From IMG/VR virus record IMGVR_UViG_3300032038_000015, positions 32,001-96,000 of that record: a stretch of DNA of 64,000 bases. One strand, given 5' to 3'. How positions within the stretch are numbered: position 1 is the first letter of the stretch; each line of letters begins with the position of its first letter. The position numbers were made by a program, and so were the translations under genes. This document shows positions 11,526 through 50,400 of this stretch, piece by piece. The notes under the pieces were generated by a model that was not told where the DNA came from, did not search any database, and saw only the letters and a list, made by a program, of their open reading frames with translations. This stretch comes from a virus (Duplodnaviria > Caudoviricetes).

Positions 11526-13256
11526 ATGGAACAAAATTATTCAAGAAAAAGATTGACAGATGAAGAATACAAACAAAGAATTTTTAAATTGTATGGTAAT
11601 GATATAACTGTATTAGAACCATATGTAAATCAAAGAACAAAAATTTTACATAGGTGCAATATTCATAACTATGAATGGAAAGCACGTACTCGCCAAATGG
11701 CAGAAGGACACAATGGATGTAAATATTGTTCGTCAGAAAAAAGAAGCCAAGGATTAACACAAAATCTTGATAAAGTAAAAGAAAAATTAAGAAAAACATG
11801 TGGTGATGAATTTACATTAAATGATGATAATGAATATTTAGGGCATAATGAAAAAATGTATTTTACCCACCATTTACCAGATGGTAGTTCCCATACATTA
11901 TATTCTAAACCAGATAGAATTTATAAATGTAAATGTCCTGTATGTTCTGGAATGCAAGTATGTGTTGGGTTAAATGATATTTGGACTACTAATCCAGATT
12001 TGGGAAATTTATTAGCAAATCCTGAAGATGGTTTTAAATATATGCAAAATAGTAATAAACATACAGATTTTAAATGTCCAACATGCGGATATATTTGTAA
12101 AGACAAATCTATTAATCAAGTAAATAGAGATATGGATGTAAGATGTCCTGTTTGTAAGGATGGTATATCATATCCAAATAAGTTGATATTCAATTCACTT
12201 TTACAAATAAAAGATAAGTTAGATTTTTTGGAAAGAGAATATCGACCAAAATGGTGTAAATTTGAATTAAAAGGTAAAACTCGTACAGGTATATATGATA
12301 TATATTTTGGAATAAATAACAAACAATACATAGTTGAGATGGACGGAGGTTTTCACGAAAAACTTCATAGCAAAGTAAAACAATATACTTTAGATGATAT
12401 AAAATATATTGATAGTATGAAAGATAAATTAGCAATCAATCATGGAATTGAAATGATAAGAATTGATTGCTCGTATGATTACCATGATAGATACATATAC
12501 ATTCTTAATAACATTCTAAATTCTAATCTTACCAAAATTCTTCCGTTAGAATCCATTAATTTTGATGAAGCAAATATAAAGTCGCAAAAATCATTATTGG
12601 TTGAAGCATGTGATTTATGGAATAAAGGATACACAGCACATGAAATTATGTCAGAATTAAACATCGGTAAATGGTTAGTACCTTCTTATTTGAAGCAAGG
12701 TCAAAAATATGGCTTATGTGCCAATTATTCTGCACAAAATAGTAGTATAAGATCTTCTGGTACAAAAGTTACATGTGTCAATACTGGCATTTCATATTCT
12801 ACTCTTACAGAACCAGGTAAACTGTATAATATTTGTGATAAAGGGATTTTAGATTGTTGTCGTGGAAATGATTTTTCTGCTGGAAAAGACTTAAATACTG
12901 GTGAGAAATTATTTTGGATGTATACCGATGATTATAATAAATTAAGTAAAAAGGAAATTATACACTATCTCATAGATAAGAAAGTAAAAAGTTATACAGA
13001 AAATATTTCTGGCAAAGCGGTGTATTGTACAACAACAGATGAAATATTTGATAGTATCATGGATGCTGAAAGAGCTTATGATGGTAATCAATGTGGAATT
13101 AGAAAATGTTGTAGAGGAGAAATGAATACAAGTGGTTCTCTACAAGATGGGACAAGATTAAAATGGATGTTCCTAAGTGATTATGTTGAAAAGAACAATA
13201 TGACTATGGAAGAGTTTGTAACGAAACGTTACTACTCTTCTTTTTTATTGGAATAA
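11526..13256 (+). CDS. zinc-ribbon-repeat endonuclease (Vsr/PD-(D/E)xK-like) with NUMOD-like C-terminal repeats
   Basis: Multiple CxxC motifs; YDIYF..IVEMDGGFH; I..CCRG repeats. Located immediately upstream of the terminase genes. Confidence 0.7.
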   Translation: MEQNYSRKRLTDEEYKQRIFKLYGNDITVLEPYVNQRTKILHRCNIHNYEWKARTRQMAEGHNGCKYCSSEKRSQGLTQNLDKVKEKLRKTCGDEFTLNDDNEYLGHNEKMYFTHHLPDGSSHTLYSKPDRIYKCKCPVCSGMQVCVGLNDIWTTNPDLGNLLANPEDGFKYMQNSNKHTDFKCPTCGYICKDKSINQVNRDMDVRCPVCKDGISYPNKLIFNSLLQIKDKLDFLEREYRPKWCKFELKGKTRTGIYDIYFGINNKQYIVEMDGGFHEKLHSKVKQYTLDDIKYIDSMKDKLAINHGIEMIRIDCSYDYHDRYIYILNNILNSNLTKILPLESINFDEANIKSQKSLLVEACDLWNKGYTAHEIMSELNIGKWLVPSYLKQGQKYGLCANYSAQNSSIRSSGTKVTCVNTGISYSTLTEPGKLYNICDKGILDCCRGNDFSAGKDLNTGEKLFWMYTDDYNKLSKKEIIHYLIDKKVKSYTENISGKAVYCTTTDEIFDSIMDAERAYDGNQCGIRKCCRGEMNTSGSLQDGTRLKWMFLSDYVEKNNMTMEEFVTKRYYSSFLLE

Positions 13257-29380: not shown

Positions 29381-29550
29381 CACTTTCAAGTTAATACAGA
29401 TATGTACGGATACGTTAGTTCGGAATTTACGCCTATGGAGTGTACAAGAACCTGTTAGTAGATATTGTAGAAATACAAATCAAAAGCATACACTTTGAAG
29501 TAGGAATGAAACATAAAAGTTTATAACTTTTTATAAGTTTTCAGTAACGG
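29381..29550 (+). ncRNA. TnpB omegaRNA scaffold and right end (copy 2); guide starts at 29551
   Basis: Shared with 1072-1241 (one difference seen). Confidence 0.8.
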
Positions 29551-32683: not shown

Positions 32684-35600
32684 ATGCCAGGTACATATCA
32701 ATATGATGTAGAAATCAAATCGAATGTAGCAAAACTACTTTCAGATATGAAACAAGTCCAAGACAGATTAGATACTGTTGAAGGAAAAGAATATAAAATC
32801 AAATTAAATGTCGATGAGAAGAAATTATCTAATGTAATTTCTAATCTCGAAAAAATGCTTGACTCTCTTGGTAAAGGAACAGGTGACTTCAAACAGTTTG
32901 AGAATTTATCAAAGGAACTGTCAAGTATTGTATCAGAAGTACAGAGTTTAAGTAAAGCCTTTGGTAAAGTAGATGATTCTGGTGCTAAAACACTACTCTC
33001 TTCTATCAAGAACATTGATAAGTCACTTTCTGAACTGAGTCAGAATATTCTCAATGTTAATAAAAACATGAGCAATATGGGTGGCAATACGAGTGGTGCT
33101 GTCAAACAAGTGGAGAATATTAGTAATGCATATCAAAATGCTGCTAAAGAAGCTGAGAAGTTGGCTGATGCACAGAGTAAAATTGGACAGAAAACGAATA
33201 TTTCATCTGGTTCTGATTCTGCTATTGAACAACAAAATAAATTTCAAGAAGAGTTAAAAGAAACTCAGAGACAGGCTGAACAAACAGCAAATTCAGTAAA
33301 TTCTATTTCTAATAGTAATTCACCTATTCGTGATTATTGGAAGAAATATGGAACTTCTAACAGAGATAGTTATATAACAAATAAATCTAATGTTACATAC
33401 GATACAATTGTACGACAATTAACAGAAGAAGAAAATGCTTCTAAAGGTATTATGCGTCAGATTAGTAAATTTATTGATCCTAGTAATATAATGCAAGGTA
33501 TTGACACGGACTATTTTAAAGCAGTGGATCAAGAATTACAAAAGATTGGATATCATTTAGACGCAATTCAAATAAATGAAAAAGATCACATCGCTTCAGC
33601 AAAAATTCTTCCAATAGATGATAAAGCTATTACGAATGCTGAGGAAATGGAACGTATATTAAAGAATATACAATCTTCTACCACATCTCAAAATCCAATG
33701 AATGACGCATTTCCTAATACTGATACGAAGTTGGATGAAGCTGTTACATCAGCAAAAGAATTAGATAAAACTCTTGAGCAGGTAGATATACCTACTGACA
33801 GCTTTGATAAAGTGTTAGAAAAGCTTGATAGAACCAAATCTGAATTAGTTGATATTGTTAAAATTACTAAACAGTCGGTTTCTGATGCTGATGGAAAATT
33901 TCACGATTCGTACACTTTAAAAGACAGTCGTGGTTCTACTGAAATTTATGGTGTGAATTCCAAAACTGATAAAGGTCAGATCCTTCGTCAGAATATTGTT
34001 GGATATGATGTTAAAGCTAATGCAAAAGCCAATCTTGAAAATGCTAAAAATATTAAAGCTGAATGGGACAAAAATCTAAAAGCAATCCAAGATTATATGG
34101 ATGCTGTTACAAAGCTCAATAATCTTAAAGCTAAGGACAAAGGCACTGGTAGCGAAGCAAATCAGATTGCGTTACAGACACAGAATGTTGAGGAATTAAA
34201 ACAGGCTGCATGGGATGCAAGAAAGAACTTGTCTTCTATGCAAGCAGAAAATCCTGATATCATCGCATGGAAACAATGGGTTGATATGATGGAACTATTC
34301 GATCAGGCTTCTAAAGGTTCTGCTGAATCAGCCGCAAAACTCAAAGATGCATTAAACAATATAAAAGTTCCATCTCTTGATAAATATGAGAATAAACTTT
34401 CTTCTTATTTAAATAAGACAGGTGGATATGATGCTACTATTGCAAGATTTAACGATGGTGGCTGGACAAGTGATACATATTTAAAAAATGTACAGGCTGT
34501 ACGTGATGCTGTTAAGCAGTACGCAACTCTTCTCGACAATATAAAGACTAATCAAAATGGTATCGCTAGTGATGAGGATATTCAGAACTTAGACAAATAC
34601 GAAAAGAAAATCAAAGATACTATAGCTGCTGTTACCAATATGTCGGCTGCTGAGAAGGGATATAACTTTGTTTCAGGTCAGAAAGAATTAGACAAGATTC
34701 ATAAGCTTCTCAATGAAAATAGTAAGATGTCTTCTGAAGCAAAGGCTAAAATTAAAGCTTACTATGCGGAAATTGAAAGCGGTAATCCTAGTATGAGTCT
34801 TGACAAGATTCATGGTGAAATCTTAAAGATTTATAATGCTGAAGTCGAAGCTGGTCGTGCTGGCAGAACATTATGGGACACTTTGAAGAATAGTGGATTC
34901 CATCAGATCGCTGCACAGATTGCAGGAATGTTTGGTGTTTATGATGCTATTAATCTGGGTAAAGAAGCGATTAGTACCATTGTAAGTCTTGACGATGCTT
35001 TAGTTGATTTGAAGAAAACTACAGCAATGAACGAAACTCAGCTTGAGCAATACTATTATGATGCTAATGATGTTGCGAAACAGATGGGTGTAACTACAGA
35101 AGAGATTATTAACCAAAGTTCGGCTTGGAGTAGACTTGGATACAATACTGCTGAAGCTTCTACAGAAATGGCAAAACTTAGTTCTCAGTTTGCTTCTATT
35201 TCTCCTGGTATGGAAGTTGACGAGGCACAGTCTGGCTTAGTCTCAATCATGAAAGCATGGTCAATAAATCCAGACCAAGTAAAGTCTGAGATTATGGATC
35301 CCATAAATAAGCTTGGAAATACAATGGCTGAATCTAACCTTGATATCGTTGAAGGTATGGAACGTTCTGCCGCTGCTCTCGCTGCTGTTGGAACTTCCAC
35401 AAAAGATGCTTTTGCTTTATTTTCAGGTATACAAGAAGTTTTGCAAAATGCAGAAAAAAGTGGTACGTCCCTCAAGAGCGTTGCTCTACGACTGCGCTCT
35501 TTTGACGAAACAACAGGAGAATATTCTGAAGATTTGGCAAATATCACGGGAGAATTAATAGATTTAACTAAAACTGCTGAACACGCTGAAGGTGTTTCTA

Positions 35601-35809
35601 TTTTTAAACCTGGTTCAACCACAGAGTTCAAAGATTTAACTGATTATTTCAGAGAGATTGCAGGTATCTGGGATGAGATGTCACAGAAACAGCAAAATGA
35701 TTTCCTAATCAAAGCTTTTGGTCGTAATCAGGCTCAAGCAGGTGCTGCTCTTATTCAGAACTTTAAAGCTGTTGATAAAGCTCTTGGTGAAATGGATGAA
35801 AGTGCTGGT
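32684..35809 (+). CDS. tape measure protein, exon 1 (1042 codons)
   Basis: Coiled-coil with TP901-type TMP core (LDDALVDLKKT, WSRLGY, GTSLKSVALRLR); ends DESAG. Confidence 0.88.
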
Positions 35810-36532
35810 AAATTTACTACCAGAATATACAGTAATGTATATATAGAATATATTTAATTGCAGGTAATGCGTAAAGCCTTGCACCACAATAATCAGGAAA
35901 CTAGATTATGATGGGACGAAAGTAGAAACAACGCAAGGATGATATAAGGTTAAAAGCCTAAGTATCAATTTTATTAATTTTATATAAATTAGGAATCGCT
36001 GTTCATGCAGCCAAGTATCCTAACGTATTCCGTAGACCATACGGTACTTGAGTCGAGGATAAAGGTTCAACGACTAGATTCATGTCGAGTTACCGACTTG
36101 AGAATAAGGGTGGAAATCCCGAATATCGGTAACAAAAATCGTAGGGCGCAATCGCAAATGGCGTGGGTGAAATCCCCTTAAATCGAAAAAGTATACTCCT
36201 CTTCTATTTAATAGAAAGGATGAAGAAATAGTCTAAACGTTATACGAAAGTATAAGAAGTTATTGCTTAATAAAGATGGTGGATTGAATGGAAAATTTTA
36301 AGTGTAAATCTATAAGACTATGTAGATATTTATATAGTTTAGGTTTTGATAAACAATCAAAGTTTGATAAAAACAATAATGAATATTGGTTATTTAAGAA
36401 ATCTGATGAATTACAAAAAGCATTAGATTTCTTTTTTATTTGATAGTTTGGTAAAGTATAAAGCAATCGAAAAAATAAAATAAATATTTAAGCAATAACT
36501 TTCTATGTTTTGCGAGCATAGATAATAAATTG
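35810..36532 (+). ncRNA. group I intron 1 (IA-like) in the tape measure gene
   Basis: P AATTGCAGGTAA, Q CATGCAGCCAAG, R GTTCAACGACTAG, S AAGAAATAGTCT; upstream exon ends in U and intron ends in G; removal restores SAG|SSDKEM in frame. Confidence 0.88.
36288..36443 (+). CDS. intron-encoded 51-aa DUF5659-like protein
   Basis: MENFKCKSIRLCRYLYSLGF...YWLFKKSDELQKALD; enclosed by stem GTTATTGCTTAA/TTAAGCAATAAC. Confidence 0.6.
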   Translation: MENFKCKSIRLCRYLYSLGFDKQSKFDKNNNEYWLFKKSDELQKALDFFFI

Positions 36533-36766
36533 AGTTCAGATAAAGAAATGGAAGCCGTAGAATCCTCTCTTTCCTATAAAATCAACGCACTCAAGGAAAC
36601 TTGGGTTGGTTGTGTACAGGATATGATAGATCGAGGAGGCTTGGGTACAATTGTAACTGGTCTTACAAAGGTTTCAGAAGGAATCACTTTTGTAATTGAT
36701 AAATTGGGTATTCTTGGATCTATTGGATTAGGAGCAGGGATATTTGCAGGAATTAAAAATGTCGGT
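36533..36766 (+). CDS. tape measure protein, exon 2 (78 codons)
   Basis: SSDKEMEAVESSLSYKINALKETW...GIKNVG. Confidence 0.85.
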
Positions 36767-37238
36767 AGGGATAAAATGTATTCCCTTAGTTTTTGAATAT
36801 GCCGACAACATGCATAATTTACTCTGGATACAGAGGTTTAAAGTATGTTATCCGTGAGATACACGGTGATAAATAAATAATTGGAACAATAATCGGGAAC
36901 TGCGTACAACGGTCTGGTAATGCAGACGTATCACCACTCTCCTATTATGGCGACATAATTAGGTTCGTAAAAGCGTGACGCTCAAGGAATCCGATGGGAC
37001 AGATCTCTCTGAGATAAGCCCTCACTGTAGCGACAACTTCCACATCAAGTTATATGCAACGATGCTTGATGAATATGCGCTCGATACTACCTGACACAAC
37101 AGGACAATCTGTGATGGATTGTAAAATGCAGAAACTTATCTTCTGTTGTTTGAACATATCGTTCCTATGTGTATTGATAAGATGGAACAAAACCAAGAAA
37201 TCTCGATTTTCTGTCGAATAAACAGAGAATAATAAAAT

Positions 37239-37262
37239 AGAGAGTAGAATACTCTACTCTCT
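37239..37262 (-). terminator. intrinsic terminator for the antisense cargo transcripts
   Basis: 10-bp stem AGAGAGTAGA/TCTACTCTCT; T-rich tail on the - strand. Confidence 0.65.
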
Positions 37263-37301
37263 TATATATGAAAATGATATAATATTCCCTCACTAGACTC
37301 A

Positions 37302-37385
37302 CTACATAAATTTGAGAACAATAACGAAAATTGTGACTGCAATCACAAATCCGCTAGTACCATTAAACTTAATAGTAAACTTCAT
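37302..37385 (-). CDS. 27-aa hydrophobic peptide MKFTIKFNGTSGFVIAVTIFVIVLKFM (type I toxin-like)
   Basis: RBS AGGAGGG; own promoter TTTACA-16-TATAAT with extended TG at about 37521-37548; about 130-nt 5' UTR. Confidence 0.65.
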   Translation of the reverse strand: MKFTIKFNGTSGFVIAVTIFVIVLKFM

Positions 37386-37616
37386 AAAAATCCCTCCTAA
37401 CATACATTACATATATAAGGAGAAGTAAAGCTTTGTTCTTAAGCCTCAGTAAAGACAGCCGTGTAGATATTGTCTAGCTCCACATATCGCACTGTTTTCA
37501 GTGCATCCACCTCAATGAATATTATATCACGAGTAAAGTTTCTGTAAAGTCTAAACGTTTGTTTTACTTTATGGAGAATAATAAAATAGAGGACAGTCGT
37601 GATGACACTAAAATAG

Positions 37617-37655
37617 CCACGCAAGCCCACTCCTTTAGGGGTGGGATGGATAGCA
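37617..37655 (+). mobile_element. isolated IS200/IS605-type end hairpin
   Basis: AAGCCCACTCC-TTTA-GGGGTGGGATG resembles the hairpin at 62850-62875. Confidence 0.55.
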
Positions 37656-37789
37656 CATTTATTTTATTTTATATTATATATCCTACCACAATTCGGACAT
37701 TTATATGATACCATTTTGTATGCCTCCTTTTATATAAATCTACAATTACATTATTATTGTGTATCCACAACACATTATATCATAGTATG

Positions 37790-40700
37790 ATATTCAAAAC
37801 AATAACAGATGAATTAGGAAATACAAAATTATCAATCAATAACAGATTTAAAGGATTATTTAGCGGAGATTTTTTTAAGAAAAAAAGTATATTAAGCGAT
37901 GACGATATTTCTGCGATACAAGCGTATAATGCAGAAATAAACAGGGGGGTTACATCTCAAACTGCATTTTATAGAACAATGCAAAATGCTTCTGTAGAAG
38001 CACAAAATATGGCGGCATCTGCCAATGGAATGGTTGTTAATTTAGAACAAATTCCAAAAGTTTCTAAAGCGGGACAAGTAGCACTTAGAGGTCTTGCTAT
38101 GGCTGGCAATATAGTTGCTGAAATTCTAGTAGGATTTGTAATATCTAAAGCTGTTGAAGGATTGGATAACTATATTCATCGAGTAGAAAATGCCAAAAAT
38201 GCTCTTGATGAATTTAATTCTTCGGTAAAAGAACAACAGAAAGATATTTCGTCACAGGAGTCATGGATTTCTGAAAATGGAAAACAATTTGAGGAATTAT
38301 CAAAAGGTGTAGACAAATATGGTCATAATATATCATTGACATCTGACGAGTTTTCGGAATATAAAAATCTAACAAGTCAAATTGCTGAAATGTTCCCTAC
38401 TATGATTACTGGATATAATGAACAAGGCAGGGCAATATTAAAAAATAAAGGTAGTATTGAAGAACTTACAAAAGCATATCAAGAAAATCAAGATGCTTAT
38501 TATGCTAATATCCGTTCTAAATCTACTAAAACTTTTGAGGATTATAAGACAGAAACTAAAGGTGATGTTAAGAAGAAAAATACTATTGAAGAGTTAATGA
38601 GTGGGAATTTATCTTCCAGGTCAATTAGGAACATACTTGGCAAAGAGGAAGGACAACTCATAGACATTGATAACAACAAAGGTATATCTTCTGCTGAAAT
38701 ACAAAATGCTTTAGGTAAAGACTTATACAATAAACTTTATGAAGAATTGAAGAAAATGCCAATAGGTAAATTTGATGCTTCATTTGAAGATTTATCACCA
38801 GAACTCCAACAAAAAATCAAAGATATATATTCAAAATTAAATGATACAATAGATACAGAATCGGAAAAAGTGCGTCCTATTCTACAAGCATATTTACAAG
38901 GTGATACATCTGGATATGATGAATTAGACGCTGAAGCCCAAACTGCTGTCCAATCATTCATTCAAAACGTAGATAATTCTTTCTTCGAGAATTTTAAAAC
39001 TGATAACGACATGGAAACATGGATACGCCAGAATGTCGTTGAGCCTTTAAAAAATGGTGTAAATAGTGATGAATTAGCTGTAAAAATTCAAACACTATTC
39101 TCTCTCGATCAAAAGGATTATAAAAGTTATCAGGATTATGTAAATGCTGTATTAGCTATTATAAATTCTTTGAGTAAGATGAAGGATAAAAATGGCAATG
39201 TAATCTATAACGATAAACAAATAAATACGATGAAAACACAATTTGGCGTTGGCGATGTAGATTCGGATGGTAATGTATCTGGAAATAAATATATAAGTTC
39301 CGTACAGGATAAGTTTAAAAATGTAAAAGGTGCAAAAGATTATATTACAGGATTAAATAAAGAAGAATTAGACACAGTTATGCACTATAAGCTTGAACCA
39401 GATAAAGATACATCTGTAAAAGATTTAAAAGATTTCATTAAAAACGAATTACAGCCAGAGGCAAATAAAAAAGAGGAGAAAGTAAAATTCTCTGTAGCAT
39501 TTAATGATGGTGACTTTAAAGATGTAAAAGAAAAGCTTCTTGAACTTGCTAAGGCAGGACAACTAACACCGTATACAATATCTTCTACAAAAGAATATAA
39601 TGCTTTATTAGAAGATACTGGATTATCTGCTGAAAAGGCATATAAAAAGATAATGAAAATTGCACAATCAGATATGAGTGAAGCTGATTGGAAAACTACA
39701 CTTACAAATGCACGTTCTCAAATTGCTGAAATTAAAAATCTAAAAAAGGAATTAAAAAAGAACGGTGAGAGTTCTGATTTTATGGATACTATTCTTGAAA
39801 AATTCCCACAGTTAATTGGTTATCTTGGTGATCAAAAGGGAATGCAAGAACAGTTAAATGAATTACAAAAGGAACAAGAAGATGTTGCCAACAATGCATA
39901 TATGCATATGGTTGAAAATAGTGAATCTTATTATTCGACATTAAAACGGAAAGAAGCAGAAAGATTAAAAACAACAAGCAATACAATAAACAAAATAGTT
40001 AATGGTAACGCTGGTCTTGTGAAAGCTTTAGGTGGTTACTATAAAGTCGATTTAAGCAACTACGCTTCAATTGCTAAGGCGAAAGCTACATTAGAAAAGA
40101 ATTTAATAACAAATCTTGCTAGTGCGTGGAGCAAATTTTACAAAGTACAGGTAAATGCACAAACTGGATTAGCAGAAGTCCATAACGATAGCAAAACTGT
40201 CCCAAGTGAATATTTAGAAAAAGCCAACGGGGATTATGGTAAAGCTGTCAGTATGATGGTAAAGGAACAAAATAAACAAAAGAACTCTGCTTTGAAAGCA
40301 GCGAAAGCATACAATGAAGCGATAAAGGGTTTTAACTCAATTATAAAGAATCCAGGTGTATCTACAAATGTTAGCAGTAGTGGAGGAAATAATAAATCTA
40401 AGAAAGCAAAAGCTACCTATCAAAAATTCTCTCAAACAATCGACTGGTGCGCTCAAACATTAAAGAAACTGTCTGCACAGATAGACAATGTACAAGCAAA
40501 ATTAAATAACACTTCTGCCCTATCGAAGCAGATTTCTTATTATAAAAAACTTGTAAAATCTCAAAACGAACTTGCTCAAAGTTATGAAAAAACAGAAAAT
40601 AAATACAACAAAGTGTATAAAAATGCTTTGAAAAAGTTGTCAAAATCAGACCAGAAAAAAGTTAGAGATGGTTCTTATACAATTGAACATTTTAAAGGTA

Positions 40701-43360
40701 AGGCTAAATCTGGTAAGAAATCTGGTGCTGAAAAAAGATACAATAATATTCAAAAAGCTTTGACCGCAAGGGATAATTATTTAGAAGCATCTACAAGCAG
40801 CGAGAATGAAAAGCAAAAGTTGGCTGAATATAGAGAGTCTTTAGCTTCTCTCAGATGGGAAAATGTAACTACAAAGGTTGAAAAGTTAAATAATCAAATT
40901 AGCATTTTAGATACTCGTATGTCTAATGTAAGTGGATATGTTGCAAAAAATAAGGTGTTAAATGAACAATTATCATTGCAGAAAAAGATTGTGGATAAAC
41001 AACAAGAAGCATATAAAGCAAATCAAAAGGATGCTAATTCTTATTATAAGAAAATTTCTGCCAAAAATAAAAAGAATAAAAATTCTGATGGCACAATTAA
41101 GACAACTGGTGTTACAAACAAAAAGCAATTATCTTATATTAAGACATATAACGCTTATTTAAAACAACAGAAAACTAATCTTGTTGAATTAAAACAGGCG
41201 CAAGAGGATTATTATAATACTATTATTAACGCCAAACAAACCGCTGCGGAAAATATTAAAACAGATTATGATAACAGAATATCTTTGGTTGATGCGAAAC
41301 GACAGGAATTAGAAAGTAAAGCATCATTAGCTGAGGCAAATGGACAAGTTGTTTCAGGCTCATATTATAAGTTAATTGCCAATAATTCTAATCAGAAGTT
41401 GAAAATATTAAATGCCGAAAAAGATAAGCTTGAAGCACAAATGCAGGGAGTTAGAAAATATTCTGATTTATGGTACACTTTACAGGCGAATATTATTTCT
41501 GTAGATCAGTCAATTGCAGATGAAACTAAAAATGCTGTTGATAATATCAATAAGCAAGCAGAAGCATTGAAAAATTTGGCTGATGCAAAAAATGATTATC
41601 TGAATTCAACATACGACACTTTGGATTGGATAAATAGTTTTGCCGATGAAGATGATTACTATGATGACGATGGTAATTATACGGATAAGGGTTATGCTGT
41701 AATGCATAATAAGCTTGCTCAAATTGAGATAAAGAAACAAGAAAGTGAAAATTATGAGAAATCCATAAGTGATTTAGATAAATTATACTATTCAAAAAAT
41801 AGTAAATTATCTGAAGCAGAATGGTTAAAACAGCGTAATGAATTAAATAAGAGTTATCAGCAGACACAAACTGATATTTACAATCAGGAAAAAGAATTAG
41901 CTGATATTAGAAATAAACAACTTGAACAACAGTCTGATAAGCTTAAAGACATCATAGACTTGAAGAAAAAGAGTTTGGATGCTGATAAATCTGAATATGA
42001 CTATCAAAAGAGTGTTGCTGAAAAGACAAAGAATATTGCCAACTTGCAAAAACAACTTGCTATGTTAGAAGGAAACAATAGTGAGGAAGCTATGGCTGAA
42101 CGTCAGAAATTACAAAAAGAATTATCTGATGCAAAGGATGATTTAAAGGATACTCAATATGATAAATATCTAGACCGACTTGAAGATGCTTTTTCTGATT
42201 TAGAAGACAGATTCGATAAGCTTATTGAAGAAATGAAAAAGGAAGATGTGTCAACTACTACTGAAAATATTAAGACAGATGTTGAGGATAATAATTCTAG
42301 TCGTGCTGAAAGTGGTAATAAGGAAATATTAGGTGAGAACGGATTACAGGTATTTGACAAGACAGCCAATTCTCTTATTACAGCAGGAACAAACATTGAG
42401 ACAAAGGTAGATGATGTTAATACAAAATTAGATAAAATTGTAGAAGCTGTAATCAAAGATAGTAAAGAGGATGTTGGAAACGGCAACGGTACTGTAAAAA
42501 CTACAACTGATTTAGATAAAGTTCTTGGTAAATATGATGCGAAAAACAAATCACAAGACACAAAAGGTAAAAGTTCTATTACTAAATATTTAGCGAGCCA
42601 AGGTTATAAAACAAAGAGTTATGAAGGAATGTTGGATTTAGTTAATGGTATTCTAAATTCTGATTATGTTAGTGGTATGAATGGCGATGATCGTACTGCA
42701 CTGAGCAAAATTACAACAAAAGACCAACTTGACGGAAATAAGGATAAGAATGCTACTGCAAACAAAGACCTGATTACAAAATCCTTAAAATATGTTAAAG
42801 CAAATGAATTCATATCTAAAAACGCTATTGTTGGTAAGAAAAAGAGAGATGAATATAGTAAGGCAAACAGACACATATATGATAAGACTGGTGGTAAGAT
42901 ATTAAGTGAGAAGAATTTAAAGAAGCTTGCAGGTATTTTAAATGTATCTTATGATTCCAAGAAAATATATGATGCTTTGAAAGCTTGTGGATACTCTCAA
43001 GGTGGTATTGTAGGAAAGGCTATTCGTGTAAATGGAGACGATGGTATAGCAACTCTTAAAACGGGTGAAGCTGTATTGACTCCTGCACAAACAGATGCTT
43101 TAGTCGCATTGAGAAAGAATTTAGTACCATTAAATAATTTCATGAGTGCAATTAAAACAAATGTTCCAAATATACAAAGAGCTACTACTGCTACTACCAC
43201 TATTGGTGACGTTAGTTTTGAGTTTAACTTGCCTAATGTTGTGGATAGTGAAACTCTTATTAAAACAATTCAAAGGGACACGAGAGTGCAGAAAACATTG
43301 CAAAATGCTACCGTAGGTCAGTTGAATGGTTCTAGTAGATTTAAAGTAAACAGATTATAA
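37790..43360 (+). CDS. tape measure protein, exon 3 (1856 aa)
   Basis: Long coiled-coil; C-terminal YSQGGIV..LKTGEAVLT is typical of TMP C-termini; followed by Dit. Confidence 0.85.
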   Translation: MFKTITDELGNTKLSINNRFKGLFSGDFFKKKSILSDDDISAIQAYNAEINRGVTSQTAFYRTMQNASVEAQNMAASANGMVVNLEQIPKVSKAGQVALRGLAMAGNIVAEILVGFVISKAVEGLDNYIHRVENAKNALDEFNSSVKEQQKDISSQESWISENGKQFEELSKGVDKYGHNISLTSDEFSEYKNLTSQIAEMFPTMITGYNEQGRAILKNKGSIEELTKAYQENQDAYYANIRSKSTKTFEDYKTETKGDVKKKNTIEELMSGNLSSRSIRNILGKEEGQLIDIDNNKGISSAEIQNALGKDLYNKLYEELKKMPIGKFDASFEDLSPELQQKIKDIYSKLNDTIDTESEKVRPILQAYLQGDTSGYDELDAEAQTAVQSFIQNVDNSFFENFKTDNDMETWIRQNVVEPLKNGVNSDELAVKIQTLFSLDQKDYKSYQDYVNAVLAIINSLSKMKDKNGNVIYNDKQINTMKTQFGVGDVDSDGNVSGNKYISSVQDKFKNVKGAKDYITGLNKEELDTVMHYKLEPDKDTSVKDLKDFIKNELQPEANKKEEKVKFSVAFNDGDFKDVKEKLLELAKAGQLTPYTISSTKEYNALLEDTGLSAEKAYKKIMKIAQSDMSEADWKTTLTNARSQIAEIKNLKKELKKNGESSDFMDTILEKFPQLIGYLGDQKGMQEQLNELQKEQEDVANNAYMHMVENSESYYSTLKRKEAERLKTTSNTINKIVNGNAGLVKALGGYYKVDLSNYASIAKAKATLEKNLITNLASAWSKFYKVQVNAQTGLAEVHNDSKTVPSEYLEKANGDYGKAVSMMVKEQNKQKNSALKAAKAYNEAIKGFNSIIKNPGVSTNVSSSGGNNKSKKAKATYQKFSQTIDWCAQTLKKLSAQIDNVQAKLNNTSALSKQISYYKKLVKSQNELAQSYEKTENKYNKVYKNALKKLSKSDQKKVRDGSYTIEHFKGKAKSGKKSGAEKRYNNIQKALTARDNYLEASTSSENEKQKLAEYRESLASLRWENVTTKVEKLNNQISILDTRMSNVSGYVAKNKVLNEQLSLQKKIVDKQQEAYKANQKDANSYYKKISAKNKKNKNSDGTIKTTGVTNKKQLSYIKTYNAYLKQQKTNLVELKQAQEDYYNTIINAKQTAAENIKTDYDNRISLVDAKRQELESKASLAEANGQVVSGSYYKLIANNSNQKLKILNAEKDKLEAQMQGVRKYSDLWYTLQANIISVDQSIADETKNAVDNINKQAEALKNLADAKNDYLNSTYDTLDWINSFADEDDYYDDDGNYTDKGYAVMHNKLAQIEIKKQESENYEKSISDLDKLYYSKNSKLSEAEWLKQRNELNKSYQQTQTDIYNQEKELADIRNKQLEQQSDKLKDIIDLKKKSLDADKSEYDYQKSVAEKTKNIANLQKQLAMLEGNNSEEAMAERQKLQKELSDAKDDLKDTQYDKYLDRLEDAFSDLEDRFDKLIEEMKKEDVSTTTENIKTDVEDNNSSRAESGNKEILGENGLQVFDKTANSLITAGTNIETKVDDVNTKLDKIVEAVIKDSKEDVGNGNGTVKTTTDLDKVLGKYDAKNKSQDTKGKSSITKYLASQGYKTKSYEGMLDLVNGILNSDYVSGMNGDDRTALSKITTKDQLDGNKDKNATANKDLITKSLKYVKANEFISKNAIVGKKKRDEYSKANRHIYDKTGGKILSEKNLKKLAGILNVSYDSKKIYDALKACGYSQGGIVGKAIRVNGDDGIATLKTGEAVLTPAQTDALVALRKNLVPLNNFMSAIKTNVPNIQRATTATTTIGDVSFEFNLPNVVDSETLIKTIQRDTRVQKTLQNATVGQLNGSSRFKVNRL

Positions 43361-44495: not shown

Positions 44496-47400
44496 ATGAA
44501 AAATAATTTTGACAATTTTACAAATACTATTACTCAACCAGATATATTCTTATGTCATAGAAATTATGATGTCATTTGTCCTTTGACACCAATTACAGAT
44601 TTAAAAATATATGAAGCCGCAAATAGCTATGATGAGATTACCTTTTCATTTAATAAAGTGAACAATGGTGTTGAGTTTGAATATTGGGATAAATTAAAAT
44701 CCTTGAAAGTTGTAAAGGTAAAGAATGCAGATGAAGAAAAATATTTTGAAATTGCTGTTGATGTTTCAGATGAAGAAAGCACTGTAAAAAATATTACAGG
44801 TATTTCAATGGAGGGCGAATTGGCACAAATCTCTATAGGTACACTTTCTGTAAATGGTGAAACGGATAGAGATAATGATAGTAATTGGGAAAATAATACA
44901 TATATTTCTACAGTTGTATATAAAGCAAGCGATACAAAACACAGTTTATTACATAGAATTTTAAGTTATGCTCCACATTGGAAAATTGGACACGTAGATA
45001 GCCACGTAACAGATTCAAACACAAATCAATTAGTTGAGACTTCTAGCGTTGTTAGAACTTTTGAATTTTCGAATACAAATGTATATGATGCATTACAGGA
45101 AGTTGCCAAAGAATTAGATGTTGTGTTTACATTTGATTCAAAAACAAGAAGTGTTAATATGTATGATCTCAATACAGTTGGTGAAGATACTACTGTTTTT
45201 GTGAACAAGGAAAATTTAGCAAATAGCTTTACATGTTCTAGTAATAAAGACAGCATTAAAAACTGTTTTAAGGTAACAGGTGGAGATGATTTAATCAACT
45301 CCTATGTACGTTCTGTAAATCCAAATGGTTCAGAATATATTTATTATATTTCAAAAGATCAGCGTGAGGATATGTCCGATGAACTAGTTGCCAAATTGGA
45401 TGCATATGACACATTATACGAAAGCAAAAAAACAGGATATGAAAATGCCTGTGCAGAAATGTTTGCTGCGATTGATAATATTCAAAAATACACAAACACC
45501 CTTGCGCCTCAAAGAACAGATGCTGATACCACTGCTCTCGATGAATACAATAAATTAAAAAACATTACAAGCGTATATGTTCAGTCTAAGAAAAATTTGT
45601 TGCAAAAAGGTGTAGAAAAGGCAATCCTTACTCTTGCACAGATTACAGTAGATTACAGATATACAGTTACAATTCAGGACGAAGATACTTATGATGAAGT
45701 TAATTCTGTATGGACAGGTAAATTTAAGGTTGTTAATGAAAGCAATAGTGAAGACGTTGTTGTGGGAACAGATGACGTTACTATTTCAATTCTTGAGGAC
45801 GAAAAAACATCTTTGCAAAATCAGATTGACAAGTTGATTGGTGATGGTGATTTTGAAGATGCTACTGTTGATGAATTAAAGGAAAAATATATAGACAAAG
45901 ATCCGAAAGATTATGATTATTGTCAAGAACGATTACAAGAAATGTGGAAAGTTTATGCTGAATGTGCAAACGTTCTACTAGAAAAGGGATATGCAGTTAA
46001 AAAAGATGATAATAAGTTTTATTCATTATATAGTGAATATCATCAAAAAGAACAGATTTTGTCTACAGCTTATTTGAATATGACAAATTATATAGAAAGC
46101 CTTGAAAAGGTAAAGGAAGAAAAGGCAAAGCAAGTAAATGCATATCATAACGAATTGGATTTTGTAAAATATTTGGGTGATAAATTATACAAAGAGTTTT
46201 GCTGTTATCGTAGAGAAGATGTGTATGAAAATAGCAATTACATTTCAGATGGGTTATCTGATAAGGAAGCTATAGAAAAGGCTAAAACACTTGTTGAAGT
46301 GGCTACAAAGGAGTTATATAAAGCGAGTTTATTCCAATACACTTATACCGCTAATCTTAATAATTTATTCAATAATAGCATATTTAAGCCTTTCTGGGAA
46401 CACTTTGCACTCTTTAATTGGATAAGAGCCGAAGTCGATGAAAGAGTGATTTCATTGCGTTTAATTGGCATAACTTACGACTATGCAAATCCAGACAAGA
46501 TTGAAGTTGAGTTTTCGGAACAGGTTAGAAACGCAAACGGAATTACAGATTTGGAGAGTATTCTAAATCAAGCTAAGTCAATGGCTACAAGCTACTCTTC
46601 TACTGCTAAACAAGCCAGCCAAGGTGCTGAAAGCTACTCTGATTTCAAAACATTAAAAGAAGAAGGTCTAAACTCTGCTCTAATGAACATTAAAAACTCT
46701 AACAACGAAGAGGTAACAGTTGATGGGCGTGGAATTAACTGTAGAAGTAAGGACATAAATGATGATTATGACCAATGCCAGCTAAGAATTACAGGAAAAA
46801 ATATTGTCATGACGGATGATGATTGGAATAGTGCTAGACTTGCTATTGGAAGAGGATTGTTTAATGGACAGGAAAAATATGGAGTATGGTGCGACGTTCT
46901 CGTGGGGGATATTGTTGCGTCTGAAACACTAATGATTTCCAATGGCTCGAAAACTTTTATTGTGGACAAAGATGGCATTATTGTAAATAACATGAAGTTA
47001 GATATGTATAGTGCAGATAAAAAACACAGACTTCTAATTGATCCAAATTTAAAATCCATGTTTAATATTTACAACGAGGACAAGCAGGTATTCTTTATTG
47101 ATGCGAATGGCAATGTCACTATGAAGGGGAATCTCTATATAAACAATGGGAACACTTATCTTAAAGCTGATTTGGATGATGAAAACATTATTGAAGTTGG
47201 TTATGGAGAAATTGAGGATACAGGCAATGATGGTGAGATTGACAAACCTGACATAGAATATGTAACACAAGAATGGTATAGAAGCTCCGATGCTTTGAAT
47301 ATGCTGAATTATGCATGGGATAGCGGTGGAAATTATTCAAGCGCAAGTGATTTCGATTATTATAATTATTACAAGAATATGTATTTTGGAAACAACAACG

Positions 47401-50400
47401 TAACAATAAAGAATGGCGTAGTATACATGATACATGATGGTACAATTAGAAAATTTGATAAGGATAAAAATACATGGAATTTTATAGATGAAGTTGACAA
47501 TGACGGAAGTTTTACTCCAATTTTTGTTGAAAATGATAGAGATGATAATTGTTTGTATATTTTTAAGCACAATGGAAGTGCTTTATGTTATTCATTATAT
47601 GCTTATAATTTAGAAAGCAATAAGTTATATGAAATATGGAAAAATCACACTAATTCTACAGCTACCCGTTCTAAAATTTCCTCAGCTATTATAATAAACA
47701 ATACATTCTATACTTTTTCTAATTCAAAAACTACTGATACTGCTCCGATAAAAGTAGCTATCCCTTATTCACAAGATGGTATATACACAGATGTTTCTAC
47801 TGAAGCCGTAAAAAGCAATTATATCAGTAGCACCTATACCCTTAGTAACTTTGTATTTTATAATAATGAGATATATTGTATGAGATTTAATTTTTCATCA
47901 TATATGGCAGATTTGTGTAAGGTTATAGACATAGAAACACAAAAGGTAAAAATTTTAGTAAGTGACATATGTTCAATAAGAAACCCGTATACTGATAGGA
48001 ATTATTGGTATTTTAATAATTTTTCTTGTTTTATACATAAAGAGAAATTATTTATTATACCTTTTGTAAAAAATAAAAATAAAAACTATTATATATATGA
48101 TTTTTCAAAAAACGAAATAATTACAAAAACAAACCTACCTCCTTTAGAGTGTGGAGATTATCACAATAGTAGCAGTTATAGGGTGTCGTTTAATGGATGT
48201 CTTGCATTCTCAGATGGTGAAAATATCCATCTGTATAATGATACTAACGTTTATTTTTACGAAAGTGGAATAAATGAAAATAGATACTGTCTATTTCATT
48301 ATGTTTATAATGAAAATAATAAAGCTTCTGTAGCCAAAAGTTTTAAAGAAGAAACGAATGGTAAAAATTTCATAAATACTCTGCAATGTGGATATATTAC
48401 AATTGGAGATAAAATATATTCATGTAATTCAACAAACTGTTTCAATGTTTATGGTAATACCACAAATAAAATTTTATGTTTAGATACTTCAAAAGAAAAT
48501 GCAGAATGGGAAACTGTCTATGAAAATTCAAGTTCTAAAATCAATTATCTTATTCAATCTAATGCTAAGGATAAGGTTTATTTCTGTTATAACCCACAAA
48601 GTAATCATGATCTTGTTTATTTAGCTTATTATGACGTTAACACAAATAAAATAATGTATTTAAAAGAAGATGGTACATATATTGATGATAAAAGTCAGGC
48701 GTATACACCTAATGATATAAGCTGGTGGGGGGGCTTCGGATATATAGACGATGATGAACAAATGGTATATGGTATATCCAAAGGTTCTTATTATAGAGCA
48801 TATAAAATTGTAAATGGATGCGTGTCTGATAAATTTGTTTACCAAAAACAACTCAACTACAACGTTGTTTCTAACGTAGTTTTCAAGAATAATGCTTTCT
48901 ATTATTTAGCAGAGGTGAATTCAGAACAATACTCATTATATAAATTAGACTTAGACGGTACAGAACAAAAGCTTACAGAAGTTATAGTTGGAAATGATTA
49001 TAATAAAGAGTTTGGTTTTAGTATCTTTTTGTATAATGACAAAATACAAGTATTTCACTCATATCGAGGTGTTTTATCTAAAGATAGATATGTTTATAAT
49101 CTAGTAACTAGTAAACTAGATAAATATTCAGATGTATTTCAAGATTTTGGTTTGTATATTATTGATACATCATATAACATTTCCTCTGGTATCTCATCTG
49201 GTAAGCGTACAATTTTCTTGCCTATGATACCTACGGAAAATAATGGCGTTCACATTTTCGTTGGTTATCCATTTTTTCTTGGTGATGAATATAACAACGG
49301 TGGTTACAAACATTATGTCTATACAGAAAAAACTACTGAACCTGATAATCCAGATTTACCAAACATTCCTAATCCTACAGACAAAATATTCTACATAACA
49401 AATAAGGGTGACGCATATTTGTACGGAAATGTATATGCTAAAGATGGAATATTCAGAGGTGATATATATGCTAGAAGCCTTACATTAGGTTCTGATGTAT
49501 CAATAGATACATCTAAAATTACAGGTCTTGATGATAAATTAAATGACATTAAGAGTGATTTCAATGGTGTCACAGATGATTTAAAAAACGTCGTATACAA
49601 GGGTGACATTGTTACTACGACAGAAAAATTAGATAATGGTGTAATCAAAACAACAAGTCGTGTACCTACTGGCGTTGATGCAGATGGCAATGTAACGTAT
49701 GAGGATAGTGTAACTTATACAAGTGCAGACGGTAACTACGTTTTGACTGATGTTGGTCTGGGTGATAAGGAAAAGGAAAACGGAAGTTATACAATCATTA
49801 GCAAAGATGGGTTACTTGAAGCTTTAAATGCTAAAATTAGTGGTACAGTTTATGCCAACGCAGGTAAATTCGGTGGTTGGGATATTGGTAAAAATGGTCT
49901 AAAATCGGAACTGTTTGATGACGCTTCTAATACGAATGGTATTAGGTTAGATTCAAACGGAGAAATTCGTTCAAAGGGTTCATTGTACTCTTCTCTCGAC
50001 AATGATGGTTCGGAAGGATGGTTTGCTAGGTTACTTAGTGGTAAATGGATATTTGGCTATTATGACAGTACACAATCTGATCCATTTATTCCTCCTTCTG
50101 AAACTCCTTATTCTGATATTTCTGTAAATGGCATTTATATGTGCTCAAAAGAAGCAATCCAAAATAAAGATACACGTTATCTGTTCGAGGTGAACACATT
50201 AAACGATACGGTTAATATTACAAACAGTTCTAAGACAAGCCCAGCTCTTACGATTACAAATAGCTATTATGATAGCGTGGGTGGATATGATGCACCTGCT
50301 TTAGTCCTGCATAGTCCAAAGCAAGGATATAGAAACAGACCTTTGGATGTAAGGTTAAAGGTTACAGGTAAATTACTTGGAACAGATCAAACAGTTAATG

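Follow-up and report, generated by a model that had tools for sequence, protein, structure and literature searches.

The intron in the nrdD (sunY) gene of phage T4, reportedly the subject of work by Michel and colleagues in 1990, is said to carry its catalytic core at the 5' end, followed by an ORF, and to reach its distant 3' splice site through the pairings P9.0 and P10. The cargo of sunY is a single sense-strand ORF of the endonuclease type, whereas the phage locus described here, referred to as intron 2, has antisense, non-nuclease cargo that extends to 6 kb in relatives. The P9.0 (6 bp) and P10 (10 bp) of intron 2 are also much longer than those of sunY.

IStrons, such as CdISt1 of Clostridioides difficile and BcISt1, consist of a 5' group I ribozyme and 3' cargo, which are spliced as one unit (Tourasse et al., 2014, PMC4227781). 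Like intron 2, they combine a 5' ribozyme without a homing endonuclease with protein-coding 3' cargo of a kilobase or more and a 3' splice site far from the core, and their Firmicutes hosts can be listed as a further likeness. The cargo of an IStron is, however, an IS element with transposase genes, whereas that of intron 2 consists of changing accessory genes without a transposase. In addition, IStrons are found in many copies at varied sites, whereas intron 2 occurs once in the 132-kb virus record, at a fixed site in one gene.

Group I introns in tape-measure genes have been described for prophages of the Bacillus cereus group (TMP-IVS1, IVS2 and IVS3; PMC2504315). In the parts of that report on which we draw, different introns fit one site via shared P1 and P10 guides and several of them have no complete homing endonuclease, as is the case for intron 2, while a multi-gene, fast-changing cargo tail is not mentioned there. 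Lastly, the ND5-717 group I intron of hexacoral mitochondria holds 18-19 kb with numerous unrelated genes, despite which it is removed (PMC6545197), but its cargo, made up of core mitochondrial genes, lies within P8, whereas that of intron 2 lies in the 3' tail. With IStrons, tape-measure group I introns and giant cargo introns as precedents, the view taken in the original prediction that this is not a described system was overstated.

Organisation of the tape-measure gene

The locus belongs to a gut phage, the host of which is probably a member of the Lachnospiraceae, and lies within the window, i.e. the whole 64-kb stretch of DNA that was analysed, to which all coordinates refer. The tape-measure gene is present as three colinear pieces, and a PHROGs search placed the three ORFs one after the other on a single profile, phrog_4211:

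32684-35809, plus strand: tape-measure exon 1, 1042 codons, with PF10145 and phrog_4211 positions 568-868
35810-36532, plus strand: intron 1, a group I intron (Rfam RF00028) separate from the 36767-37789 intron
36533-36766, plus strand: tape-measure exon 2, 78 codons, ending in GTCGGT, phrog_4211 positions 869-936
37790-43360, plus strand: tape-measure exon 3, 1856 codons plus stop, phrog_4211 positions 951-2583

The end of exon 1 was set by relatives whose exon 1 continues directly into exon 2, and the boundaries of intron 1 by comparison with the related locus L009. When joined, the three exons form a single frame of 2,976 codons, and the predicted fusion of 36766 to 37790 indeed reads ...GIKNVG/IFKT... 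in frame. Homologues of exon 2 in relatives stop at the same codon, and exon 3 is 76-84% identical to its counterparts. Some related phages possess an uninterrupted tape-measure gene; two of them (L044 and L077) continue through the intron 2 site in one frame, with the L044 protein reading ...LSS-IFKE... across the site at matching spacing. A tblastn search with exon 2 gave no match.

An independent start of exon 3 at the ATG of 37787-89 was considered and rejected, as no Shine-Dalgarno sequence was found upstream of exon 3 and the triplet is ACG in five relatives (L041, L069, L071, L072 and L074). The G that precedes the junction, unlike the overlapping ATG, is kept in all lineages with a mapped 3' end. 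From our point of view, it is quite likely that the 1,023 bases from 36767 to 37789 represent one cis-splicing group I intron of the late tape-measure transcript. Four public runs were covered in the form of Logan contigs. Two RNA libraries contain fragments of the exons and of relatives' intron core, none of which bridges the junction of AATGTCGGT and ATATTCAAA (36766 to 37790). In one X6 record, 36386 and 37798 are connected through 20 foreign letters, at a depth of 2.5.

The neighbouring intron 1 is missing from most relatives. It is matched by RF00028 at 35942-36256 with 36.5 bits (E 2.6e-6; the gathering score of the model is 50 bits), and its 5' splice site has a U-A pair, not U-G.

Ribozyme core and splice-site guides

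Judged from its sequence, intron 2 is very probably a self-splicing group I intron with the ribozyme in its first ~420 bases. The helices of the model, together with the elements near the 3' splice site, are as follows, all on the plus strand:

36761-36806: P1 (36761-66 with 36801-06), with U36766-G36801 at the 5' splice site
36767-71 with 36782-86: P1 extension hairpin
36791-36800: P10 guide
36807-36866: P2 (36807-13 with 36843-49), P2.1 (36822-26 with 36831-35) and P2.2 (36852-56 with 36862-66)
36883-86 with 37038-41: P3, enclosing P4, the P5 extension, P6, P6a and the 5' strand of P7
36892-97 with 36990-95: P4
36898-36989: P5 extension, including a GCGA-capped hairpin (36941-63)
36996-98 with 37019-21: P6, together with P6a (37003-07 with 37011-15)
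37029-32 with 37078-81: P7, extendable to 37025 and 37083 with two bulged bases
37043-49 with 37065-71: P8, followed by J8/7 (37072-77)
37084-89: 5' strand of P9.0, followed by P9 (37090-93 with 37100-03)
37105-09 with 37117-21, 37129-33 with 37141-45 and 37154-58 with 37166-70: P9a, P9b and P9c
37161-65 with 37184-88 and 37135-40 with 37176-81: two pseudoknot pairings, at the end of the conserved module
37758-37774: hairpin near the 3' splice site with a 5-bp stem and the loop ATCCACA, in the same place and with a covarying stem in relatives
37783-37789: 3' strand of P9.0 (TAGTAT) and the terminal G37789

Every sequence feature listed in the original prediction was found in its place. The end of exon 2, GTCGGT (36761-36766), pairs with GCCGAC (36801-36806) and puts its last U opposite G; the first 10 nt of exon 3, ATATTCAAAA (37790-37799), have their exact reverse complement in TTTTGAATAT (36791-36800), which gives a P10 of 10 bp; and ATACTA (37084-37089) forms a P9.0 of 6 bp with TAGTAT (37783-37788), directly ahead of G37789.

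The proposed group I identity is borne out by the canonical order of the helices and by compensatory changes within them. The core runs P3-P4-P5-P4'-P6-P6'-P7-P3'-P8-P8'-P7' with the P3/P7 pseudoknot, and this arrangement is supported by covariation in an alignment of 16 related introns, for which slid partners and 500 shuffles served as controls. In the alignment, 92.9% of the cells pair, compared with 31-46% when partners are slid. Both sides have changed in 38 pairs, compared with 5-7, although these compensatory cells stand for few independent events because many of the aligned sequences are closely related. For four of the five measures, no shuffle out of 500 reached the value of the real alignment; for the remaining one (further pair types), 497 did so.

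Compensatory pairs were seen in P3 (2), P4 (1), P6 (1, GC to CG in type B), P7 (2) and P8 (6 of its 7 pairs). P7 pairs in 100% of the cells, with AGCG/CGCT of type A replaced by AATG/CATT in type B, and its two bulged positions vary while the neighbouring positions do not. P2, P2.1 and P2.2 likewise pair in all cells, with compensatory changes, and were independently recovered by RNAalifold, which finds the nested helices unaided. For P1, pairing is again complete (100% of cells), the last pair being U-G in 12 rows and U-A in the four rows of type B; among lineages the helix covaries from CTTGGT/GCCAAG to ATTGGT/GCCAAT, two pairs of its extension have changed on both sides, and type E has C opposite A where other types have U opposite G. 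The helices and their covariation are shown, as are the colinearity of the exons and the turnover of the cargo described below.

Two further pairings were considered and not adopted. RNAalifold pairs the 3' strand of P7 with AGCGT at 36973 instead, a pairing that is broken in three rows, whereas P7 as modelled is never broken. A helix of GTGATA (36867-72) with TATCAC (36929-34) is conserved, but lacks compensatory changes and would run across both P3 and P4.

The original prediction had the whole core finished early in the intron. This is correct for P3 to P9, which are complete by ~37103, but the conserved, covarying module, with P9a, P9b, P9c and the pseudoknot, reaches ~37188, and the relatives depart from the window sequence past ~37190. 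As such, the variable tail amounts to ~600 nt and not 680. A search with the group I covariance model, suggested at the outset as a check, did not identify the intron: RF00028 gave no match on 36700-37850 (1.15 kb) at E up to 10 and none in the introns of five relatives, and Rfam scans of the region, the whole window and the relatives detected intron 1 alone. The group I assignment hence relies on a model built by hand and on the covariation seen in it. Also counting against the assignment are the greater-than-usual lengths of J6/7 (7 nt) and J3/4 (5 nt), the restriction of P3 and P7 to four canonical pairs each, and a minimum free energy of the core that improves on shuffled sequence by only a modest margin (z = -1.8). 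Minimum-free-energy folds were uninformative, and a blastn search of the region against 50,697 phage records returned nothing for the intron 2 core.

With regard to the 3' splice site, the P10 10-mer occurs nine times in the window, compared with 1.57 expected, and even with the observed rate (~7e-5 per position) it is unlikely that chance placed a match at the single position where it is needed. A guide matching the downstream exon is found in type A (TTTTGAATAT with ATATTCAAAA), in type F, where the match is up to 13 nt long (CAGTTTTTAGTTG with CAACTAAAAACTG), and in type H (ATTGTACTGT with GCAGTACAAT). In all three, this guide immediately precedes the P1 guide, a G stands just before the target, and the exons join in frame. 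The long-range 3' splice site is supported by these separate guides of 10 to 13 nt in three unrelated lineages, each guide being matched to the start of the lineage's own downstream exon. Much of the conservation of P10 and P9.0 seen inside types A, B and E reflects the conserved exon and not covariation. For types C, D and G, a search by guide complement yielded no convincing 3' splice site inside the fetched loci (6-kb flank), and these introns probably extend past that flank.

The following course of events can be imagined from the sequence and the established chemistry of group I introns. The first 422 nt would fold as a ribozyme in which P1 presents U36766-G36801, where free guanosine would attack. 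RNA polymerase would next transcribe the 600-nt tail, which has no catalytic part, and the far splice site would then be captured by the two helices flanking G37789, namely P9.0 (37084-89 with 37783-88) and P10 (36791-800 with 37790-99). Exon ligation would result in one frame of 2,976 codons with ...GIKNVG-IFKT... at the joint. The tail would tolerate insertions and deletions because only its two ends matter for splicing.

The hairpin near the 3' splice site carries the loop TTCAAAC in relatives. In the window, a 7-nt complement exists between its loop region (GTATCCA, 37762-68) and the loop of P2.1 (TGGATAC, 36825-31), and the two might pair.

The cargo tail and its turnover among relatives

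An intron is present at the same site in at least 55 of 75 related phage contigs, and at least eight intron lineages with lengths from 1,023 to 6,323 nt occupy it. The expectation that loop cargo would vary among homologous tape-measure loci proved correct, with rapid turnover and introns of 1.0 to 6.3 kb, and the idea of a cargo bay fits the finding that, among relatives with upstream exons of 100% identity, the fraction of the first 3 kb of cargo held in common is only 0.3-0.68. Related phages have 2 to 6 kb of swappable defence-type genes ahead of the distant 3' splice site, among them NsnA/GmrSD-like, DUF3800, MazF-like and antirepressor genes, and in some the cargo spans 5-6 kb with genes and terminators on both strands. 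Among the cargo ORFs scanned in relatives, no transposase was found at curated level; besides weak hits to zinc ribbons, a single PHROG match labelled 'transposase' (E 1e-4) was seen. The claim that no homing endonuclease is present holds for the window's intron (Pfam, PHROGs), but not for every relative, as one endonuclease-like ORF, the only one among those scanned, is part of the cargo of L007 (L007:14084-15199; phrog_559, E 4e-65).

In the window itself, the tail is composed of the following elements:

37189-37782, no strand assigned: variable cargo tail of intron 2, unshared with relatives whose core is 95-98% identical
37229-37262, minus strand: intrinsic terminator (37262-37239) with a 10-bp stem and then a T tract, the first element after the ribozyme
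37302-37385, minus strand: gene for a hydrophobic peptide of 27 residues, MKFTIKFNGTSGFVIAVTIFVIVLKFM, with the ribosome-binding site AGGAGGG
37521-37548, minus strand: promoter-like site TTTACA, 16 nt, TG-n-TATAAT (11 of 12 matches, extended -10), aimed at the peptide gene
37575-37606, no strand assigned: second, truncated copy of a module-boundary motif, the first copy of which lies at 37225-37243
37623-37714, minus strand: remnant of a zinc-ribbon gene, comprising a ribosome-binding site with 16 codons (37714-37664, MVSYKCPNCG...) and a 35-nt 3'-end element (37657-37623)

Of the antisense genes with their own promoters and terminator that had been predicted for the gap, the promoter-like site, the peptide gene and the terminator were found. 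The tail also contains the zinc-ribbon remnant. A full-length version of the zinc-ribbon gene (118-190 aa, minus strand) is situated just upstream of the 3' splice site in nine of the ten listed relatives' introns, and the 35-nt element has a match in phiCD211, immediately after a zinc-ribbon gene with the annotation 'HypA'. Parts of the tail (37195-37606) recur with 93-95% identity behind other intron types in L032, L036, L039 and L076, where the peptide ORF is intact with four substitutions. A similar terminator-like element stands immediately behind the core in the relative G001 (L005, about 10395-10440). More than 20 relatives contain stretches of 27-33 nt that match the boundary motif with 94-100% identity, and its truncated copy is probably a recombination scar.

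The ORFs of the gap had no match in Pfam or PHROGs, and the peptide of 37302-37385 none in Pfam. Being small and hydrophobic, with its own predicted promoter, ribosome-binding site and terminator, the peptide resembles a type I toxin, and we read its gene as a type I toxin-like or moron gene whose expression would not depend on the late operon. On the plus strand, no promoter dedicated to a small RNA was identified, and the intron RNA would be the only known RNA antisense to the gene. Overall, the tail probably serves as an accessory-gene hotspot of this phage lineage, of which the window holds a self-contained antisense unit (predicted promoter, 27-codon peptide gene, terminator) and the scars of a deleted zinc-ribbon gene. 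The predicted antisense transcript would extend from about 37513 to 37230.

Alternative explanations and potential role of the cargo

We infer from the sequence that intron 2 is spliced, that this occurs in cis, and what its cargo does, and other explanations have to be weighed against this. One could suppose a decayed relic that no longer splices, either in a defective phage or in one that builds its tails from two separate polypeptides, the genes for which would flank an accessory-gene island. [quoted passage not shown] However, all three exons are open, compensatory changes maintain the helices across many phages, the complementarity of guide and exon is maintained in unrelated lineages, exon 3 has neither a ribosome-binding site nor a conserved start codon, and the uninterrupted homologues indicate that the protein is a single chain, which together make a relic improbable. 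It is just as hard to believe, and if anything harder, that a functional ribozyme is split over two transcripts, one with exon 2 and the core and one with the end of the tail and exon 3, that are joined in trans via the long P9.0 and P10. The 16 bp of pairing around the terminal G do exceed what a cis intron normally needs, the 5-6 kb of cargo in some relatives bear genes and terminators on both strands, and convergent antisense transcription from the tail could break the sense transcript. With tails of this length, minutes could moreover pass between the first step of splicing and the appearance of the 3' splice site in the transcript, a kinetic difficulty that speaks against splicing in cis. 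On the other hand, neither a plus-strand terminator nor a strong plus-strand promoter was found inside the window's 1-kb intron, so that a single transcript is the simpler expectation, and IStrons with long 3' cargo are spliced as one unit (PMC4227781).

The 10-nt complementarity might, finally, not be an RNA guide at all, as TTTTGAATAT and ATATTCAAAA also form inverted repeats that flank most of the insert and could be the ends of a DNA transposon inserted in the gene. Yet the left repeat lies 24 nt inside the ORF break and the right repeat within the exon, no transposase family was found in the window's tail (Pfam, PHROGs), the element occurs once in the genome, and P1, the terminal G and the covarying core would be left unexplained, all of which renders a transposon extremely improbable.

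For intron 2, we tentatively propose, with somewhat less than even confidence, that its tail is a selected store of accessory genes within an essential late gene, the cassettes of which are swapped and are spliced out in the lytic cycle. During lysogeny, promoters belonging to the cargo, most of them antisense, would drive the stored defence-type, toxin-antitoxin and antirepressor genes, and the minus-strand terminator would insulate these genes from the ribozyme. In the lytic cycle, long-range splicing would cleanly excise the cargo from the tape-measure mRNA. Phages would exchange cassettes by recombination at the shared module-boundary motifs. The sense intron RNA might in addition regulate the toxin-like gene as an antisense RNA and thereby tie the expression of the cargo to the late operon.

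If splicing does occur, dozens of gut phage genomes would share a large group I intron family, seated in an essential virion gene, with a fast-changing defence- or toxin-like island and not a homing nuclease as payload, and the accessory-gene hotspots known from prophages would be joined by one of a new kind. It would also follow that 16 bp of pairing in P9.0 and P10 suffice to hold a 3' splice site over distances of as much as 6 kb. The architecture further suggests a natural scaffold for the insertion of cargo into essential phage genes without disruption. Since standard RNA models and gene callers miss the introns, such tape-measure genes are annotated as two or three genes.

The tape-measure gene and its interruptions

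Within the source IMG/VR virus record (131,991 bp, of which the window covers 32001-96000), a PHROGs search found the tape-measure gene split over three ORFs, all of which match one tape-measure profile in order:

exon 1: profile positions 568-868; also carries a PhageMin_Tail domain
exon 2: profile positions 869-936
exon 3: profile positions 951-2583

With the end of exon 1 as query, 75 loci of related phages were collected from viral contigs. Since two loci, L044 and L077, traverse the end-of-exon-2 site uninterrupted in one frame, and since L044 reads ...LSS-IFKE... at the corresponding spacing from a common LTKVSE motif, the three pieces make up one protein. In five relatives ACG stands in place of the window's ATG across the terminal G of the second gap (intron 2), and a search for a Shine-Dalgarno sequence upstream of exon 3 found none; exon 3 is hence no independent gene.

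The first gap gave a group I intron match in Rfam under the gathering score (35942-36256, 36.5 bits, E 2.6e-6). As exon 1 joins exon 2 directly in most of the 75 loci, intron 1 can be bounded at 35810-36532 and regarded as optional. [quoted passage not shown] Further insertions of 0.3-2.2 kb interrupt the exon 1 homologues of L039, L042, L045 and L047-L061, near query residues 113, 170-179 and 312, so that in these phages the tape-measure gene is a target for introns at several sites. In G002, a relative's record (L007/L008), an insertion of ~1.8 kb near residue 800 of the large gene that follows the tape-measure gene (homologue of window 44496-50000) may be another intron.

Predicted splice sites and intron lineages where exon 2 ends

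The original prediction placed a group I-like intron with a distant 3' splice site within 36767-37799, and all the pairings it claimed are found in the window sequence, as is the in-frame exon 2/exon 3 joint GIKNVG/IFKT:

36761-66 with 36801-06: P1, GTCGGT with GCCGAC, terminal U-G pair
36791-800 with 37790-99: P10, exact complement between the guide (the exon-pairing intron segment) and exon 3
37084-89 with 37783-88: P9.0, ATACTA with TAGTAT
37789: terminal G of intron 2

The 10-mer ATATTCAAAA is over-represented (9 copies in the window versus 1.57 expected); despite this excess, a chance match at the single required position is improbable. Seven of the copies lie away from intron 2, at 177, 4167, 8023, 24794, 38827, 40746 and 45478.

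Nearly all of the 75 loci break at the end of exon 2, and the sequence beyond falls into at least eight intron types (A to G, with H in the relatives' records G001 and G002). The first 420-440 nt of the window intron recur at 82-98% identity in 13 loci (type A), and parts of them are common to seven more (type B). The guide of each type fits its own exon: P1 changes from CTTGGT/GCCAAG to ATTGGT/GCCAAT in L021, and in type E the exon GTCGGC stands opposite ACCGAC, which therefore gives a C-A pair where other types have U-G. In those loci whose fetched stretch includes the downstream exon, a G precedes the junction and the exon opens with the complement of the P1-adjoining guide:

type A: 10 nt
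type F: 8 to 13 nt (CAGTTTTTAGTTG with CAACTAAAAACTG in L079)
type H: 10 nt (ATTGTACTGT with GCAGTACAAT)

In every lineage with a mapped 3' splice site the predicted join is in frame. At 15-25 nt 5' of that site, relatives of types A, B and E all have a hairpin whose stem covaries (e.g. L010 ~11765-11785). Its loop, TTCAAAC, complements both the conserved core GTTTGAAC (37148-55) and the P10 guide, so the hairpin could act in long-range docking or as a 3' exon mimic; the corresponding loop of the window is, unlike this, ATCCACA. The assembled contigs of two RNA libraries contain fragments from relatives, none of which bridges the exon 2/exon 3 junction.

The proposed ribozyme core

The group I reading drew no backing from Rfam, where the second gap had no match even at E up to 10. 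A structure model was derived from an alignment of 16 type A/B introns:

P1, P1 extension, P2, P2.1, P2.2
36883-86 with 37038-41: P3
36892-97 with 36990-95: P4
P5 extension of 92 nt, including a GCGA-capped hairpin
P6, P6a
37029-32 with 37078-81: P7, extendable to six pairs if two variable bulges are allowed
37043-49 with 37065-71: P8
J8/7, 6 nt
P9, P9a, P9b, P9c
two pseudoknot pairings, ending at 37188

As modelled, the helices follow the group I intron order, P3/P7 crossing included. Across the 16 introns, 92.9% of cells pair versus 31-46% with partners slid by 1-3 columns, both-side changes affect 38 pairs versus 5-7 when slid, and none of 500 shuffles attains the observed values on four of five measures. 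Covarying pairs occur in P3, P4, P6, P7 and P8. P7 pairs fully in both types (AGCG/CGCT in A, AATG/CATT in B) and P6 switches from G-C to C-G. Compensatory pairs number six of seven in P8, two in P3 and one in P4, with types A and B not homologous in the P3-P5 region; because many alignment rows are close relatives, few independent events underlie the compensatory cells. RNAalifold, a program unable to depict pseudoknots, recovered the nested helices independently; its alternative partner for the P7 3' strand is broken in three rows.

The similarity of DNA-run contigs to the window ends exactly at 36766, and contigs from the public runs X1 and X7 (neither recorded as RNA) join 36899 to 36989, the P5 extension between the P4 strands (36900-36988) being missing or replaced. 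Both observations fit the modular model. Elsewhere in the window, two RAGATH-18 RNAs (1123-1197 and 29432-29506; 70.8 and 70.2 bits) score well over the Rfam gathering score.

Cargo, known systems and possible host

Between the ribozyme and the 3' splice site, the tail (37189-37782) had been proposed to hold antisense genes with their own promoters and terminator, and the corresponding minus-strand signals are present:

37262-37239, minus: terminator, directly behind the ribozyme
37385-37302, minus: gene for a 27-residue hydrophobic peptide, strong ribosome-binding site
37548-37521, minus: predicted near-consensus promoter
37575-37606: truncated copy of a boundary motif
37714-37623, minus: zinc-ribbon gene remnant (first 16 codons and 3'-end element)

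No ORF of this tail had a match in Pfam or PHROGs; four relatives bearing other intron types retain the peptide ORF. The boundary motif, (A)CAGAGAATAATAAAATAGAG plus a hairpin, is found where cargo modules meet in more than 20 relatives (window 37225-37243 and 37575-37606; L005, in G001, 10395-10440). It represents the stem plus T tract of terminators on the minus strand and is probably a recombination anchor.

The relatives' introns are 2.2-6.3 kb long and carry:

NsnA/GmrSD_N-like proteins (PADLOC NsnA, E 5.5e-39)
DUF3800
PemK/MazF-like protein
GNAT acetyltransferase
HTH protein
Bro-N/ANT antirepressors
aspartyl protease
zinc-ribbon gene, antisense, immediately 5' of the 3' splice site (in 9 of 10 listed introns)
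HNH homing-endonuclease-like gene, in G002 only (phrog_559, E 4e-65)

The expected variability of the cargo is borne out: where upstream exons agree at 100% identity (L009 to L012; L029, L030, L031, L033; L082, L083), the loci have just 0.3-0.68 of their first 3 kb of cargo in common and differ even in intron type, a pattern that points to a recombination hotspot. Overall, the relatives, the covariation and the guide/exon matches support, at the level of comparative sequence analysis, the reading of intron 2 as a group I intron whose tail would serve as a cargo bay.

In T4 sunY, an ORF lies behind the core, and P9.0 and P10 select the 3' splice site. A study on Bacillus cereus prophages (PMC2504315) already describes tape-measure group I introns, some without endonucleases, with different introns occupying one site via common P1 and P10 guides. 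IStrons fuse a 5' ribozyme to a 3' IS element and are spliced as one unit, and group I introns with foreign inserts can reach about 20 kb (PMC4227781); P8 of the coral ND5-717 intron contains most of a mitochondrial genome (PMC6545197). The view that the system is undescribed hence holds only in part: tape-measure introns, IStrons and cargo introns are known, whereas a full-text literature search found no account of phage group I introns with a variable defence-type or toxin-type island as tail.

Among species-representative genomes the only match was L084, a contig from the MAG of an uncultured member of the Lachnospiraceae, and this hints at Lachnospiraceae as the host group; the sequencing runs with phage sequence are bovine gut samples.
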